A DNA stretch of 64,000 nt from Candidatus Latescibacterota bacterium (GTDB lineage Bacteria > Latescibacterota > UBA2968 > GCA-2709665), in NCBI GenBank assembly GCA_963667175.2, contig CAXXXF010000006.1, positions 224,001 to 288,000 of the forward strand, in the 5' to 3' direction. Made by a program: the position numbers and the translations under genes. Shown here piece after piece: positions 10,322 to 40,834 of this stretch. Position 1 is the first letter of the stretch; each line of letters starts with the position of its first letter. Below the pieces are notes generated by a model, which saw only the letters and a program-made list of their open reading frames with translations, made no database searches and was not told where the DNA came from.

Positions 10322-12202
10322 ATGTGGACCTACGATAAACACTACGACGTCATCGTTGTCGGCGCGGGGCACGCCGGGGCCGAGGCCGCGCTGGCAGGCG
10401 CGCGCATGGGGTGCAGCACCCTGCTGCTGACGATGAATCTGGATACGGTCGCCCAGATGTCCTGCAATCCGGCGGTTGGAGGTATCGCGAAGGGCCATAT
10501 GGTGCGTGAGATCGATGCTTTGGGCGGTGAAATGGCGCAGAACATCGACGCAACGGGTCTGCAGTTCCGTCTGCTGAATCGGAGCAAGGGGCCGGCCGTG
10601 CAGGCCCCCCGTGCGCAGGCCGACAAGAAGGCGTATCAGTTCCGCATGAAATACGTCGTGGAGAGTCAGCCGAATCTGGACCTCAAGCAGGGCCTCATCG
10701 AAGACCTGCTGGTAGACGAGGGACGCATAACGGGCATCCTCACCAGGTCCCGCACGATATTCCTGGGGCGGACGGTCATCCTGACCACGGGCACGTTCCT
10801 CAGGGGCCTGATCCACGTCGGTGACCGGTCGCACAGTGCCGGGCGGGCCGGGGAGCAATCCGCGGAACGGGCATCGGGCGGGCTTCAGCGCTTGGGGTTT
10901 GAGCTGGGCAGATTGAAGACAGGGACGCCGCCGCGGATCAATGCGCGCAGCGTCGATTACAGCGCTATGGACATCCAGCCCGGAGACGAGCATCCGTGCC
11001 CCTTCTCCTACCGGACCGAGGCCATCACGCAGGAACAGCTCAATTGCCACATAACCTGCACCACTCCGGCCACGCACGAGATCATCCGCCGGAACCTGGA
11101 TCGCTCGGCGATGTACAGCGGACGTATCCGGTCCGTGGGTCCACGATACTGCCCTTCGATCGAAGACAAAGTCGTCAGATTCGCAGACAGGCAAAAACAC
11201 CAGCTCTTTGTGGAGCCGGAAGGTTACGACACCCTGGAAGTCTACCTCAACGGGCTCTCAATGAGCCTTCCCGAAGACGTCCAGGTCGAGGTTGTCCGCA
11301 GCGTTCCCGGCCTGGAAAAAGCGGAAATCATGCGGCCGGGCTATGCTGTCGAATACGACTATGTCCCGCCTACGCAGATCCTTCCCACCCTGGAAACCAA
11401 ACCGGTCCGGCGGCTGTATTTCGCGGGTCAAATCAACGGCACCACGGGCTACGAGGAAGCGGCCGGACAGGGTCTGATGGCGGGCGTCAATGCCGCATTG
11501 CGCGTCCGCAACGAAGACGCGCTCGTTCTGGACCGCGCCCAGGCCTATATAGGCGTACTGATCGACGACCTCACGACCAAGGGTACCGATGAGCCGTACC
11601 GGATGTTCACGTCACTGGCGGAGTACCGACTGCTGCTGAGACACGACAACGCCGACCTTCGCCTGACCGAAATCGGCCGCAAGATCGGGCTGATTTCCGA
11701 CAGTGCGTACAACTCCTACAGACGTCGCACGGAAGCGATCGCCGCCGAACAGCGCCGCCTGAGAAGGGTAAGAGTCAAGCCATCGAGCCGGGTTCAGCAG
11801 TACCTTCGGGAAGCGGGTACAACCCCTCTCGCTCAGGCCGCGCCGCTGATCGACCTGTTGCGCCGACCCCAGCTCGACTATCGGTTTGTGCAGGACGTGG
11901 CGCCGCCTCCCGAACCGCTGCCTCCCGACGTATGCCAATCCGTTGAGGTGGAACTCAAGTACGAAGGGTACATCCGACGGCAGGAAACGCAGGTTGCCAG
12001 GTTTCAGGATCTGGAGGCAAGGCGTCTTCCCGAAGACATCAACTACCTGGACCTTCCCGCCATCTCCCGCGAAGCCGCCGAAAAGCTCTCGCTGGTACGC
12101 CCCCGCTCCCTGGGTCAGGCGTCCCGAATTCCGGGCGTTTCACCCGCGGACATTTCCGCCCTGCAGGTCATCCTGAGAGCCCGTGCCCGAGGCGCGGCAT
12201 GA
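10322..12202 (+). CDS. mnmG: tRNA uridine-5-carboxymethylaminomethyl synthesis enzyme MnmG
   Basis: VGAGHAGAEAA, MSCNPAVGG, GPRYCPSIEDK, AGQINGTTGYEEAA. Confidence 0.97.
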   Translation: MWTYDKHYDVIVVGAGHAGAEAALAGARMGCSTLLLTMNLDTVAQMSCNPAVGGIAKGHMVREIDALGGEMAQNIDATGLQFRLLNRSKGPAVQAPRAQADKKAYQFRMKYVVESQPNLDLKQGLIEDLLVDEGRITGILTRSRTIFLGRTVILTTGTFLRGLIHVGDRSHSAGRAGEQSAERASGGLQRLGFELGRLKTGTPPRINARSVDYSAMDIQPGDEHPCPFSYRTEAITQEQLNCHITCTTPATHEIIRRNLDRSAMYSGRIRSVGPRYCPSIEDKVVRFADRQKHQLFVEPEGYDTLEVYLNGLSMSLPEDVQVEVVRSVPGLEKAEIMRPGYAVEYDYVPPTQILPTLETKPVRRLYFAGQINGTTGYEEAAGQGLMAGVNAALRVRNEDALVLDRAQAYIGVLIDDLTTKGTDEPYRMFTSLAEYRLLLRHDNADLRLTEIGRKIGLISDSAYNSYRRRTEAIAAEQRRLRRVRVKPSSRVQQYLREAGTTPLAQAAPLIDLLRRPQLDYRFVQDVAPPPEPLPPDVCQSVEVELKYEGYIRRQETQVARFQDLEARRLPEDINYLDLPAISREAAEKLSLVRPRSLGQASRIPGVSPADISALQVILRARARGAA

Positions 12203-27520: not shown

Positions 27521-28438
27521 ATGCATATGATCCCCCTGATCAGCAGCCTGTGCTACGGAACGCTCGAAGTCTGCCAGCTTCCAAGGACCTGGTGGAAGGT
27601 CCTGCTCCGGAACGCGGGCATTCTCGACGAAGAATACCCCGACGTGAGCGAAGGTCTGGACAAGTCCGTCCTCGAAGTGCTGAATCTGGACACAGAGACG
27701 ACCCTGGCGTATTTAAGAGAGCACAGGCCCGACTACCTCCGGTTCGAAGCCTGGGTCCTCGGACAGAACGACGGAACGCTCGATGGAAGGGCGATCGTCA
27801 ACTGGAACGATTCCGTGCGCGCCCGCGTTCATACCAGGCCGGACAAGCTCGAAGAAACCACGAGCGACGTCGGCATTCCCAACGACGGCGCGATCACGTC
27901 AGCCGTGATCCTCAACAGCCTCCAGGACTGGACGCTCTTCTACAAACGCGACCTGAAGGGGGAATTCTCGGCCCTGGGCGGCCGCGTGGTTCCGCTCGTC
28001 TCCAGCCTGGACTACGGTCCTCTCAACGTCTGCCAACTCCCTCGTACGTGGCTGAAGATACTGCTCAGGTCCCGCAACCTGCTTCATCCGGACTATCCCG
28101 ATATGACCGAAGACGGGCTGGACCCCCGAGTTCTGCGCGTTGTCAACGTCCGGCCGGACGACGCCGTCCGTTTCATCAGAGAGAATGGGCCTAACTATCT
28201 CGATTTCGAAGCATGGGTTCTGCAGAAAAACGACGGACGTGTCGACCCGCGCGCCGTGGACGAGTGGAACAGCTTTGTGCGAACCCGCATCCATACCGAT
28301 GAGAAAATCGTGGATATCCACGATACATTGGGCCTGGAAAACGACGGAAGCCTGACGTCGGCCGTGGTCCTGAACCACGTTGAAGACTGGCGCTTCGCGC
28401 ATGCCGACCTGACGGGCAACACCGCCGGTTCGATTTGA
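27521..28438 (+). CDS. hypothetical protein with tandem duplicated domain (DUF5069-like)
   Basis: Two ~150-aa halves sharing PL.SSL.YG.L.VCQLPRTW.K.LLR...YPD...GLD...YL.FEAWV...WN...R.H...TSAV.LN...DW. Confidence 0.75.
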   Translation: MHMIPLISSLCYGTLEVCQLPRTWWKVLLRNAGILDEEYPDVSEGLDKSVLEVLNLDTETTLAYLREHRPDYLRFEAWVLGQNDGTLDGRAIVNWNDSVRARVHTRPDKLEETTSDVGIPNDGAITSAVILNSLQDWTLFYKRDLKGEFSALGGRVVPLVSSLDYGPLNVCQLPRTWLKILLRSRNLLHPDYPDMTEDGLDPRVLRVVNVRPDDAVRFIRENGPNYLDFEAWVLQKNDGRVDPRAVDEWNSFVRTRIHTDEKIVDIHDTLGLENDGSLTSAVVLNHVEDWRFAHADLTGNTAGSI

Positions 28439-28539
28439 CCGGCAGACGCAGCCTGAAAGCCGCCGGGGTTTCTACGCTTGAAAATGGCAACCATAAACGC
28501 TCGTCTGTTTCGACATTTGGAAAGCCACCTTTTTTTTTG

Positions 28540-28568
28540 TTGACATCATCCGAACCGTGAATTAAAAT
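28540..28568 (+). promoter_or_regulatory. strong sigma70 promoter with upstream T-tract
   Basis: TTGACA-N17-TAAAAT preceded by a run of T. Confidence 0.75.
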
Positions 28569-28616
28569 ACCATTAAATTCAGGTATTAGTTTACATTGTC
28601 GGCAAACAAAACCGGC

Positions 28617-28672
28617 CGTTCCGGAAAGGAGGTGATATTCGAAACCACGTCGTTAAACGTCTCGCCGCTGTA
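28617..28672 (+). repeat. conserved motif copy 1 (GGAGGTGATA-N8-CACGTCG-N4-ACGT-YTY-GCCGCTGTA)
   Basis: Aligns with 28734-28791 and 29374-29428. Confidence 0.75.
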
Positions 28673-28733
28673 CGTCTTGTTTCAGGCGGTGATCGGCGGA
28701 ACAACTGGCTACAGCCGGTCACGGACCTGTTCG

Positions 28734-28791
28734 CGTTCGAAAATGGGAGGTGATAGAAGAAACCACGTCGATAAACGTTTTGCCTGCTGTA
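28734..28791 (+). repeat. conserved motif copy 2
   Basis: GGAGGTGATAgaagaaacCACGTCGataaACGTtttGCCtGCTGTA. Confidence 0.75.
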
Positions 28792-28981
28792 CATTTTACG
28801 TGAGAAACTGTGGCTCGGGGCAATAGCTGATTTGGCCCGTTGCGCGATGTGAGTGATTGAACGATTCCGAAAAATCGTGTATCACGGCCTTTCATATCAC
28901 CGCCACACCTTCTTGGTCGATCCCGGTATCCCATCAAGCTCAGTCCTTCATACGGTCTAATCACCGTCAATAATTCTCCAA

Positions 28982-29074
28982 ATTCACGTGAATCGCTGTC
29001 CGTGGGGTGGTCGGGCTGTACGCCTGCCGCGTTAATCACGGCGTCCGCCCGATTCACGTGAATCACTGTCCATG
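28982..29074. promoter_or_regulatory. two direct-repeated palindromic sites (ATTCACGTGAAT), possible operators
   Basis: ATTCACGTGAATC(G/A)CTGTCC(G/A)TGG at 28982 and 29052, 70 bp apart. Confidence 0.5.
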
Positions 29075-29373
29075 GCGGGACTGGGTGGCGCGCCCTGCGC
29101 CTCTATCACGTTTGATCTCCCTGCTTTCTTGATTCGCTGCCATTCGTGTGGCCGGGCGGGGCGCCATGCGCCTGTATCCCGGACGATCACGGACCTGACG
29201 CGAACCACAGTTCGCGGTGCGGTTTGGTGACGTGTCTTCCGCTGTAATCTCCGAGTATATCAACACAAGCAGGGGAATCGCAGTTCCGGTGCGGTTGTGC
29301 GGCGCGCGGTCAGAACGAGACCGCACGGGGCAAGCGGTCGTGCGAGCGGTTCAAGTCTCCCAGAGGCCGCCCG

Positions 29374-29428
29374 CGTTTGGAACGGAGGTGATATTGGGAT
29401 TCACGTCGCGACACGTTTCGCCGCTGTA
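29374..29428 (+). repeat. conserved motif copy 3
   Basis: GGAGGTGATAttgggattCACGTCGcgacACGTttcGCCGCTGTA. Confidence 0.75.
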
Positions 29429-29510
29429 GGTCTATGCGTAGACGATAATCGGCTGCAGTTTCGGTTGACGCCGATCACCAAGTTGTCCACGTTTGGAAGG
29501 GAGTCAGGAA

Positions 29511-30686
29511 ATGGATCGTGAAGATCTGAGAGAAAGAGTGGAAACACTGGAAGAAAGGCTGCGCGGGCAGAAGCGGGTAATTGCCGGTTTGATCGTCGTG
29601 TTCCTCTTCAGCGCGTCGCCGGCGTTTACGCAGGCAACGAAGTGGTTTGGGAGTATACTGCCGTCAAAGCTGACGTCGCCAGGCCTTCGGCACGGCGCTT
29701 CCCGCGGTGACGCGCGATTTGGCCATCTTTCGCCAAACGAGCCGGAAATCCCGCTACCGGAGACCGGTACGGGCGGACTGAGCAAGATCGCTCCTGAGAC
29801 AATCGTCGATGCCGGGGACACGTTGCGGGTGGGTGAACTTCAGATCGTAAATGCAAGTGGCGCGGTTGTCGCCGCCATCGGGGCGGGTCAGTCCGGAAAC
29901 GGCGCGCTGACGATCAGGAACAGCAATGGCGACGTGGTTTCCGTTGTGGGCGTCGACTCCAGGGGGCACGGCACCGTGGGGCTCCTCAATGCGTCAGGTC
30001 GAATCACGGCCGCGATGGGCGCGGATCGGACGGACGACGCCAATGGCGTGGTCGACGTCAAGAGCGCAACGGGTTCCGCGGCGGCACTCGCCTTCGATGG
30101 GGCCGGAGACGCCGCCGTTACGGTGTTCAACAAAGACAAAAAGCCGGTTTCCGGATTCGGTATCGACAATAACGACAACGGCGCCCTGCGGATCTCGAAC
30201 GCGTCGGGCGCAATCGTTGCCGCGATGGGCGCGGATAAGACGGACGACGCCAATGGATGGATGCACGTCAGGAATCAATCAGGAACTGCTGCGGGCTTCT
30301 CCGTCGACCGGGACGGAGACGGCCTGGTCATCGCGGGCAACCGGAACAACGATGAGGTTTCGATCATGGGCGCGAATGAAAACGGCCACGGCATCATCGG
30401 GTTCAAGCACGCGTCCGGGCGGGTTGTCGTTGGCATGGGGGCCGATTCGACCGGCGTGGGCGTGCTGAATATTGAAGGCGGCAGATTCCGGGCCTTTCTC
30501 GATGCCGACGGCAACGGAGTCGCGAAAACCCTGGGACGACGCGGGAACCTTCGCTGGTCCTCTGAAGCGTCTTCCGACGGCGGCGCGTCAACCGGGCTGA
30601 TCGGGGATTTCGACGGCAACGGAAAGGTCGATTTCGCGGACTTTGTGACGTTCGCCGCAAATTACGGCAAGACGAGCGGGTCGTGA
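29511..30686 (+). CDS. exported beta-repeat protein with C-terminal EF-hand/dockerin-like motif
   Basis: N-terminal coiled coil plus hydrophobic segment; ~23-aa repeats L.I.NASG.VVA..GAD...NG; C-terminal GDFDGNGKVDFADFVTFAANYG. Confidence 0.75.
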   Translation: MDREDLRERVETLEERLRGQKRVIAGLIVVFLFSASPAFTQATKWFGSILPSKLTSPGLRHGASRGDARFGHLSPNEPEIPLPETGTGGLSKIAPETIVDAGDTLRVGELQIVNASGAVVAAIGAGQSGNGALTIRNSNGDVVSVVGVDSRGHGTVGLLNASGRITAAMGADRTDDANGVVDVKSATGSAAALAFDGAGDAAVTVFNKDKKPVSGFGIDNNDNGALRISNASGAIVAAMGADKTDDANGWMHVRNQSGTAAGFSVDRDGDGLVIAGNRNNDEVSIMGANENGHGIIGFKHASGRVVVGMGADSTGVGVLNIEGGRFRAFLDADGNGVAKTLGRRGNLRWSSEASSDGGASTGLIGDFDGNGKVDFADFVTFAANYGKTSGS

Positions 30687-40736: not shown

Positions 40737-40834
40737 TGGCGGGAATGTGTGGGAATCGAACCCACCCAGCGTGTGATTAGCACGCCGCAACGGGTTTGAA
40801 GCCCGCGAGGGCCACCAGTGCCCCATCCACTCCC
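40737..40834 (-). tRNA. selC: tRNA-Sec (anticodon UCA)
   Basis: GGGAGTGG...CGGG-CTTCAAA-CCCG, long variable arm, GTGGG-TTCGATT-CCCAC, 3' GCCA; directly downstream of selAB. Confidence 0.95.

Follow-up and report, generated by a model that had tools for sequence, protein, structure and literature searches.

What might some 940 nucleotides do that follow a strong promoter, hold no credible gene and three times repeat an extended Shine-Dalgarno (SD) sequence with no conserved start codon behind it? The question is raised by positions 28540-29510 of a 64,000-nt window, the whole stretch of DNA analysed here, to which coordinates refer unless another locus is named. The window lies on contig CAXXXF010000006.1 of a Candidatus Latescibacterota bacterium (assembly GCA_963667175.2, genome G000). 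An initial annotation, made from the letters and their open reading frames (ORFs), had marked the region as a candidate new non-coding RNA or cis-regulatory system. Comparative analysis supports a motif that appears to be real, non-coding, selected and outside every Rfam family. Beyond that earlier view, its distribution suggests a genus-wide leader module of secreted repeat-protein arrays.

A motif family confined to one genus

The pattern GGAGGTGATA-N8-CACGTCG-N4-ACGT has three exact matches, at 28628, 28746 and 29384, all on the plus strand and all where the initial annotation had placed them. None of 100 shuffled sequences matched the pattern, the chance expectation being none, and the three copies in the window are the only true ones in the 5.5-Mb assembly. 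The CGTT that had been reported ahead of each copy is present 8-9 nt upstream and forms part of a wider consensus, CGCGTTCGGAAA. The second copy had been credited with a one-base insertion; compared with the 32 other long-tailed copies (alignment A1), an insertion is indeed there, but it consists of two single-base insertions.

A sequence-only model, R1, built from 53 copies (alignment A2), recovers 73 copies, spread over all 15 genomes of the genus (g1, Candidatus Latescibacterota), so that the motif is not a lone curiosity. Each genome carries 1-13 copies, always on one contig and one strand, which amounts to one locus per genome. R1 found no copies in seven genomes from four other genera of the family, and nhmmer found no motif in the syntenic loci of other genera. 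With the 971-nt region as query, blastn gave matches in all 14 other genomes of the genus and in none of the 26 genomes outside it. The syntenic public records are metagenome-assembled genomes of Candidatus Latescibacterota, a few of them filed under Gemmatimonadota, and sponge metagenomes are among the sequencing runs that contain DNA of the window.

The element had been described as belonging to no recognised family, and the comparison with Rfam 15 agrees. The sole match above its gathering score in the window is a selenocysteine tRNA (tRNA-Sec) at 40741-40834; between 28300 and 29700, there are four matches with E no higher than 10, and their 13-20 bits fall short of the gathering scores of 36-64. 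No work bearing on the motif was found in a search of the literature on Latescibacter together with Shine-Dalgarno. We regard the motif as a genuine cis-element family that has not been catalogued before and is confined to one uncultured, sponge-associated genus.

Wider pattern searches were of little use. Public metagenome contigs gave no match to the strict pattern, and 50 loci matching a loose pattern were rejected, since they reach at most 22.7 bits with a hidden Markov model of the core, compared with 80-93 for true copies. A phylum-wide pattern allowing two mismatches, run on 168 genomes, gave scattered matches outside the genus that lack the GGAATCC spacer; it was judged too loose, and R1 was preferred.

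A start-less Shine-Dalgarno core that matches the 16S tail

The core of the motif is a start-less, maximal SD sequence complementary to the organism's own 16S rRNA tail, much as the initial annotation had read the block. The 16S 3' end of the genome is ...GGATCACCTCCTTTCT, and copy 1 holds its 13-nt perfect complement, GAAAGGAGGTGAT, at 28624-28636. Across 42 unique copies, these 13 positions agree with the complement of the tail at 0.74-1.00, and agreement drops immediately outside them, to 0.19 at the 5' end and to 0.02 and 0.07 at the 3' end. In 27 of 43 copies, the longest stretch of complementarity extends over at least 11 nt; at 37 real start sites of the array genes described below, it is 3-6 nt. 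Six columns are invariant among the 53 copies, five of them within GGAGGTGAT. Of the four occurrences of the 11-mer AAGGAGGTGAT in the genome, two lie in the rRNA genes and one in copy 1. Within 3-10 nt after GGAGG, 24 of 43 copies have no ATG, GTG or TTG, and the remaining 19 show an unconserved TTG.

Other assignments of the motif were tried and rejected. Read as a sigma-70 promoter with GATATT as the -10 element, it has a poor -35 element, and the last T is the least conserved (29/42). The spacings misfit sigma-54 and extracytoplasmic-function-type promoters, as judged by eye, and the GTTAAAC-like word that would suggest an integron attC site is not conserved within the motif.

Genome G000 is 95% complete, with a stated contamination of 4.75%. 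It holds two different 16S 3' ends (contigs C3 and C7) with differing 3' spacers, as well as two full-length RNase Y matches (C17 and C12). These doubled features represent either two operons or paralogues, or part of the contamination.

The motif lies in the leaders of secreted-protein genes

Relatives (G013, G007, G010, G001 and others) show the motif at intervals of 2.4-5 kb, and at every occurrence a gene encoding a WD40-repeat protein follows. The proteins of these arrays carry a signal peptide and a C-terminal EF-hand/dockerin-like module, for which the EF-hand and Dockerin_1 matches are sub-threshold. The 391-aa protein encoded downstream of the motif in the window is not a WD40 protein and matches no Pfam family above threshold; over its C-terminal 32 aa, it shares this module with the WD40 array proteins (BLASTP E = 4e-7). 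One study reports that all ten of its sponge-associated Latescibacterota genomes encode secreted eukaryotic-like repeat proteins, WD40 included, and that eukaryotic-like proteins hold domains important for symbiosis (PMC12993501).

The motif is always oriented like the next gene and occurs in three contexts. In the first, exemplified by copy 1 of the window, a further copy follows 110-118 nt on. In the second, exemplified by copy 2, a conserved tail of ~190 nt is attached; the block stands 250-278 nt 5' of the ATG in 13 cassettes and thus belongs to the leader. In the third, exemplified by copy 3, two hairpins follow and then the real start site. Leaders are 270-950 nt long, and several copies lie 81-154 nt past the preceding stop codon.

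The strong promoter TTGACA-17-TAAAAT with its upstream T-tract, named in the initial annotation, is present and agrees with the consensus at 11 of 12 positions. A homologous promoter, TTGACA-17-TAAACT, stands at the equivalent place in G013, and positions 1-65 of the blastn query were matched in six relatives. From this promoter, a transcript start is predicted near 28575, and copy 1 begins ~52 nt after it. The 16-kb array of G013 has a strong sigma-70-type promoter on the gene strand in its first leader only, so that the internal copies may sit in polycistronic RNA. At most of the syntenic loci listed from other genera (L036-L073), the 305-aa gene that precedes the leader is followed within ~30 nt by an ORF of ~370 aa, with no long leader and no array; leader and array together therefore appear to be a genus-specific insertion.

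The arrays themselves (L020-L027, from G013, G007, G010, G001, G012 and G009) comprise up to about ten secreted WD40 genes in tandem, and several members are shortened or interrupted (for example, products of 312, 329 and 408 aa, against the usual 680-730 aa). Several cassettes show a GC-rich hairpin of ~30 nt, GGCCGGGAA..CC..GGGTTCCCGGC, after the previous gene and without a T run (for example, at L020 ~10990-11035). It leads into some 70 nt of conserved sequence that end with GATCACC immediately 5' of the first motif copy. This hairpin could be a processing site or an unusual terminator.

Coding capacity, structure and an independent transcript

The initial annotation had seen no credible coding sequence in the ~940 nt before 29511. 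This holds: 28569-29510 contains no ORF with support, and all six frames fail codon-type tests. Within the motif, column entropy has no clear three-base period, and, among differing codons, the share that is synonymous does not exceed 0.27, with no one frame highest across the four blocks tested. In adjacent genes, used as a coding control, the true frame reaches 0.37 and wrong frames 0.14-0.18. Reverse-strand frames span 13-208 codons and have no common start, and the distance of 110-118 nt from motif to motif likewise speaks against coding. Judged by these substitution patterns, the motif is non-coding, without the conserved start, frame, stop and codon-type substitutions of a small-protein or leader-peptide gene, and the suggestion that the copies are decayed small-peptide genes falls away. 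A leader peptide would require the strong SD to drive translation from a start other than AUG, either UUG or an AUU or AUC that follows the SD directly, and thereby regulate the downstream gene. ATY does follow the SD in 35 of 43 copies, and the frame GGA GGT GAT ATT shows a weak signal over its first 36 nt, with a synonymous share of 0.27 and entropies by codon position of 0.45, 0.56 and 0.68; a small residual probability is kept for this reading on these grounds. Speaking against it, the open frames from such starts are anywhere between 1 and 80 codons long and share no conserved stop, the most variable position of several codons is the first or the second, single-base insertions and deletions occur inside the block (A1), and the signal stays well under that of the coding control. 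Only a slight chance is left to it.

The search for a conserved fold was similarly negative. For the 33 copies of A1, RNAalifold proposes six weak pairs at -0.97 kcal/mol with no compensatory change, a scan of all column pairs finds no stack with covariation, and mutual information separates only two subfamilies. Folding energies are the same as those of shuffled sequences, both for the whole 941-nt leader (z = +0.56) and for the tails of the 33 copies (mean z = 0.03; 1 of 33 below -2). Local folds of the variable hairpin region and folds of single sequences added nothing. The signature of a riboswitch or other structured cis-regulatory RNA thus does not appear in these alignments, and the earlier idea of tandem riboswitch-like elements loses its footing. 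One may still argue that a riboswitch-like element, thermometer or antitermination structure is hidden by shallow alignments. The leaders are long, pairing of the SD block with AUCAC..CUCC downstream is possible in 91% of cells, and the tail carries a hairpin at the same place in different copies. The sequence and the presence of that hairpin vary, however, and with no Rfam match, no covarying stack and z-scores near zero, we consider a structured RNA very improbable.

A further proposal of the initial annotation was a separate small RNA (sRNA) of ~300 nt. Here, copies 1 and 2 with the tail would form an independent transcript that titrates ribosomes or another factor, with copy 3 as the cognate site. 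The promoter immediately 5', two strong SD sites within 120 nt and the sequences resembling the 16S tail downstream all fit. The hairpin and the anti-SD-like TATCACCGCC annotated behind copy 2 are both in place. A terminator scan found a single site, a five-pair stem at 28875-28887. What follows it (CCTTTCATAT) is no real T run, and shuffled sequences average 1.8 such sites; no terminator being found, neither a separate sRNA nor a riboswitch is supported. In relatives, moreover, the block runs on into the gene leader, keeps a fixed distance to the ATG and is also found, without promoters, between genes. Given also the missing folding signal, an independent sRNA seems hardly credible to us.

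Layout of the leader and its neighbours

The features of the leader and the flanking genes are collected in Table 1. The copy-3 arrangement is also found in G006, G002 and G003, ahead of homologues of the 391-aa gene. The DUF5069-like assignment of the upstream 305-aa gene derives from its G013 orthologue and reaches 22 bits there, under the cut-off.

Table 1 Features of the leader region and adjacent genes in the window.
Feature	Position	Strand	Remarks
Upstream syntenic gene, 305 aa, two DUF5069-like halves	27521..28438	+	Marks the insertion point of leader and array in the genus
T-tract and sigma-70-type promoter	28530..28568	+	Nine-T run 28530-28538; promoter 28540-28568: -35 TTGACA 28540-28545, 17-nt spacer, -10 TAAAAT 28563-28568
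Conserved leader start ACCATTAAATTCAGGTATTAGTTTACATTGTCGG...	28569..28613	+	Kept in the G012, G010, G001 and G013 leaders
Motif copy 1 (kind with a second copy ~116 nt on)	28614..28690	+	R1 match, 69 bits
Motif copy 2 with long conserved tail	28732..28931	+	Motif 28746-28797; R1, 54 bits; alignment A1, 33 copies
Variable hairpin in the tail of copy 2	28853-28885	+	Read from sequence
Anti-SD-like TATCACCGCC in the tail of copy 2	28895-28904	+	Complementary to the SD block at 9/10; pairing potential without covariation
Second repeat family, 4-5 tandem units of ~70 nt (AATCACGTGAATCACAGTCCG...GGCGCGCC...TTAATCAC), ATCAC-rich	28980..29335	+	
Motif copy 3 (kind directly before the gene start)	29370..29446	+	62 bits; runs into hairpin GTCTA-TGCG-TAGAC 29430-29443
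Hairpin ATCGGC...GCCGAT, then CACC	29448-29475	+	Read from sequence; kept in copy-3-type relatives
Real SD GGAAGGGAG and ATG	29495-29503 and 29511-29513	+	Read from sequence; kept in copy-3-type relatives
Downstream gene, 391-aa protein	29511..30686	+	N-terminal membrane anchor or signal, internal repeats, C-terminal EF-hand/dockerin-like calcium-loop module

A second repeat family lies between copies 2 and 3. Its units carry the palindrome ATTCACGTGAAT; their centre is GC-rich, varies in sequence and might, judged by eye, fold into a small hairpin. The G013 leader has the same units (L020 4411-4695). A stretch at 29230-29246 that had been taken for a partial tail of the motif falls in the fourth unit of this family and is not a motif remnant. 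The word ATCAC is seen eight times in the leader against ~1 expected, all eight occurrences lying 3' of the first two motif copies, and ATCAC, TCACG, CACGT and similar words are enriched 5-8 fold.

Farther downstream, the tRNA-Sec gene (Rfam RF01852, 73.4 bits) occupies the minus strand; its presence suggests that the organism probably uses selenoproteins.

A proposed docking site for 30S subunits and its rivals

We postulate that the motif is a cis-acting module of leaders and intergenic regions that docks 30S ribosomal subunits, in the manner of a STAB-SD stabiliser or a standby site. We put this forward tentatively, as a possibility somewhat short of an even chance. The STAB-SD of cry3A from Bacillus thuringiensis is described as an SD-like stretch within the 5' untranslated region (UTR) that has no translation start and pairs with the 16S 3' end, and the bound 30S subunit as stabilising the mRNA by blocking RNase J1 (PMC4113751). 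The module is a genus-specific, non-coding unit of ~75 nt, set in the long 5' leaders and intergenic regions of one secreted-repeat-protein locus, the products of which are WD40 protein arrays in relatives and one exported 391-aa protein here. Its functional heart would be the start-less extended SD GAAAGGAGGUGAU, which is complementary to 13 nt of the 16S 3' tail and on which a 30S subunit could dock, on untranslated RNA. The docked subunit might then shield the mRNA from decay that depends on the 5' end, or do so for every cistron processed from a polycistronic array. Alternatively, docked ribosomes may be kept ready for the true start 130-900 nt downstream. Judging from pairing potential, cis-masking of the site may come from the downstream words that resemble the 16S tail (AUCAC..CUCC, ATCAC repeats). 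The ribosome is suggested as the partner because of the sharp, two-sided match to the 16S tail, the missing start, the co-orientation with the genes and the early position in the leader; transcription, 30S binding and any effect on stability or translation we infer from the DNA.

A bolder version, which appears improbable to us, would give the eukaryotic-like proteins of a sponge symbiont a ribosome-docking system of their own, specific to the genus. In it, the start-less, maximal SD ahead of each secreted WD40 gene and the downstream words that imitate the 16S tail (AUCAC..CUCC, ATCAC-rich 70-nt units) would act together as a switch, by which 30S subunits are loaded or held back and the stability and output of every cistron are set. 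The leader would then be modular, sense ribosomes, work without RNase J and belong to a new class.

Several findings weigh against the docking proposal. RNase J (TIGR00649) was not found in the 95%-complete genome, where the best match scores 32.5 bits against a cut-off of 400; the RNases found are RNase E/G and RNase Y. Since RNase J was not found, our claim extends only to a motif that may well work like a STAB-SD, not to membership of that class. The seven sequencing runs that contain 28400-29700, four of them sponge metagenomes from one study, are of DNA type or of a kind not stated, and none is listed as RNA. Six orthologous copies read GGTGGTGAT and carry a mismatch in the middle of the SD core (A1). 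Docking leaves unaccounted for the conserved parts beyond the SD block, namely GGAATCCACGTCG, GCCGCTGTAC and the upstream CGCGTTC. Regarding the masking in cis, the helix of the SD block with AUCAC..CUCC has no compensatory changes and is equalled by every shuffle. Finally, in 21 WD40 cassettes the 64-nt motif block has a mean entropy of 0.62 with 11 of 64 columns invariant, no better than the third codon positions of the adjacent genes in the same cassettes (0.66; 11 of 60 invariant).

The last of these comparisons implies that the similarity between cassettes could largely be recent duplication or gene conversion. If so, the family would be mostly a by-product of the tandem spread of leader-plus-gene cassettes, and the motif itself would have little function. 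Between species, the neighbouring 305-aa gene retains an identity of 0.66-0.86 at third codon positions, so that neutral DNA remains alignable within the genus and cassette similarity alone proves little; the long tail, with an entropy of 0.8-1.07, is even less conserved than third codon positions (0.73). Older duplicates tell against this explanation. Within leaders, the two members of 12 tandem pairs retain 81% identity over the first 26 nt and 58% over the 26 nt that follow, and both flanks have decayed to the random level of 26-27%. The motif is retained in three otherwise unrelated sequence contexts, one of them ahead of a gene unrelated to the WD40 proteins, and its invariant columns cluster in the SD block. 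A conserved island within decayed flanks is the pattern expected from purifying selection on a short element. The evidence on selection is mixed overall, and we judge duplication on its own to be a rather unlikely account.

The motif might instead be the site of a sequence-specific regulator, either an RNA-binding protein acting on the leader or a DNA-binding repressor or activator past the promoter, with the SD likeness incidental or secondary. Conservation in primary sequence without structure is consistent with such a site, as are the enriched leader words, the conserved boxes that bear no relation to the 16S tail (GGAATCCACGTCG, several palindromes of short length and, within the 70-nt units, ATTCACGTGAAT), and the single locus per genome, as might be expected of a dedicated regulator acting locally. 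A protein site gives no reason, however, to expect an exact 13-nt match to the 16S tail that is sharp at both ends, and strict co-orientation with a variable distance to the ATG is easier to reconcile with an RNA element than with an operator. Next to the locus, no regulator gene is apparent. CsrA (PF02599), one candidate for the RNA-binding protein that the initial annotation had imagined to be sequestered here, gave no hit in G000 although control genomes respond; at 95% completeness its absence is likely, not proven. The search for a second NusG-type factor (PF02357) returned a single locus in G000. The unexplained GGAATCCACGTCG box and the upstream CGCGTTC keep the protein-site reading alive, and we rate it as unlikely but worth serious attention.

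If the motif is a docking stabiliser, the STAB-SD principle would extend from the Firmicutes to a distant, uncultured phylum without RNase J, and the stabiliser would be a compact, portable element. If it is a regulator's site instead, it would mark the dedicated regulon of a symbiosis locus. On both readings, the 73 copies from 15 genomes make it a clean candidate for a new family of RNAs or cis-elements.

Comparison with known systems

Sponge RNAs of the CsrB/RsmZ type and leaders bound by CsrA share with the motif the repeated GGA elements on non-coding RNA, one of them near a gene start. Unlike in CsrB/RsmZ, the motifs do not lie in hairpin loops, the unit is much longer, no terminator marks an independent transcript end and no CsrA gene was found. 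The ops/JUMPstart elements are read by RfaH-type NusG paralogues, and UpxY-dependent leaders occur in the capsule loci of Bacteroides. Like these, the motif is a short, conserved, co-oriented leader element of long operons for secreted or surface products, with a G-rich core starting GG.GGT. It differs from them in that the genome has one NusG-family gene, the match to the ops consensus is loose and the motif recurs before each gene.

Standby sites are usually unstructured, lie near the start and have no strong SD. The motif resembles them in its proposed role, that of an accessible ribosome-binding stretch 5' of the start that would hold a 30S subunit without initiating; in contrast to them, it is a maximal SD and lies 130-900 nt from the ATG.

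The comparison with STAB-SD shows differences as well as likenesses. The complement of the motif is longer (13 nt) and forms part of a conserved ~75-nt unit that has a second box, GGAATCCACGTCG; the motif is often doubled 110-118 nt apart and is repeated before every array gene; and the host is a member of the Latescibacterota in which RNase J was not found. The core of the cry3A element that Agaisse and Lereclus published in 1996 is reportedly GAAAGGAGG, which is contained in the motif consensus. Both are SD-like, lie far from the true start inside a long 5' UTR (a predicted one in the case of the motif) and are complementary to the 16S 3' end. No functional start codon follows the cry3A element, and no conserved canonical start follows the motif; the genes that they precede encode an exported or accumulated protein that is, or would be, highly expressed.

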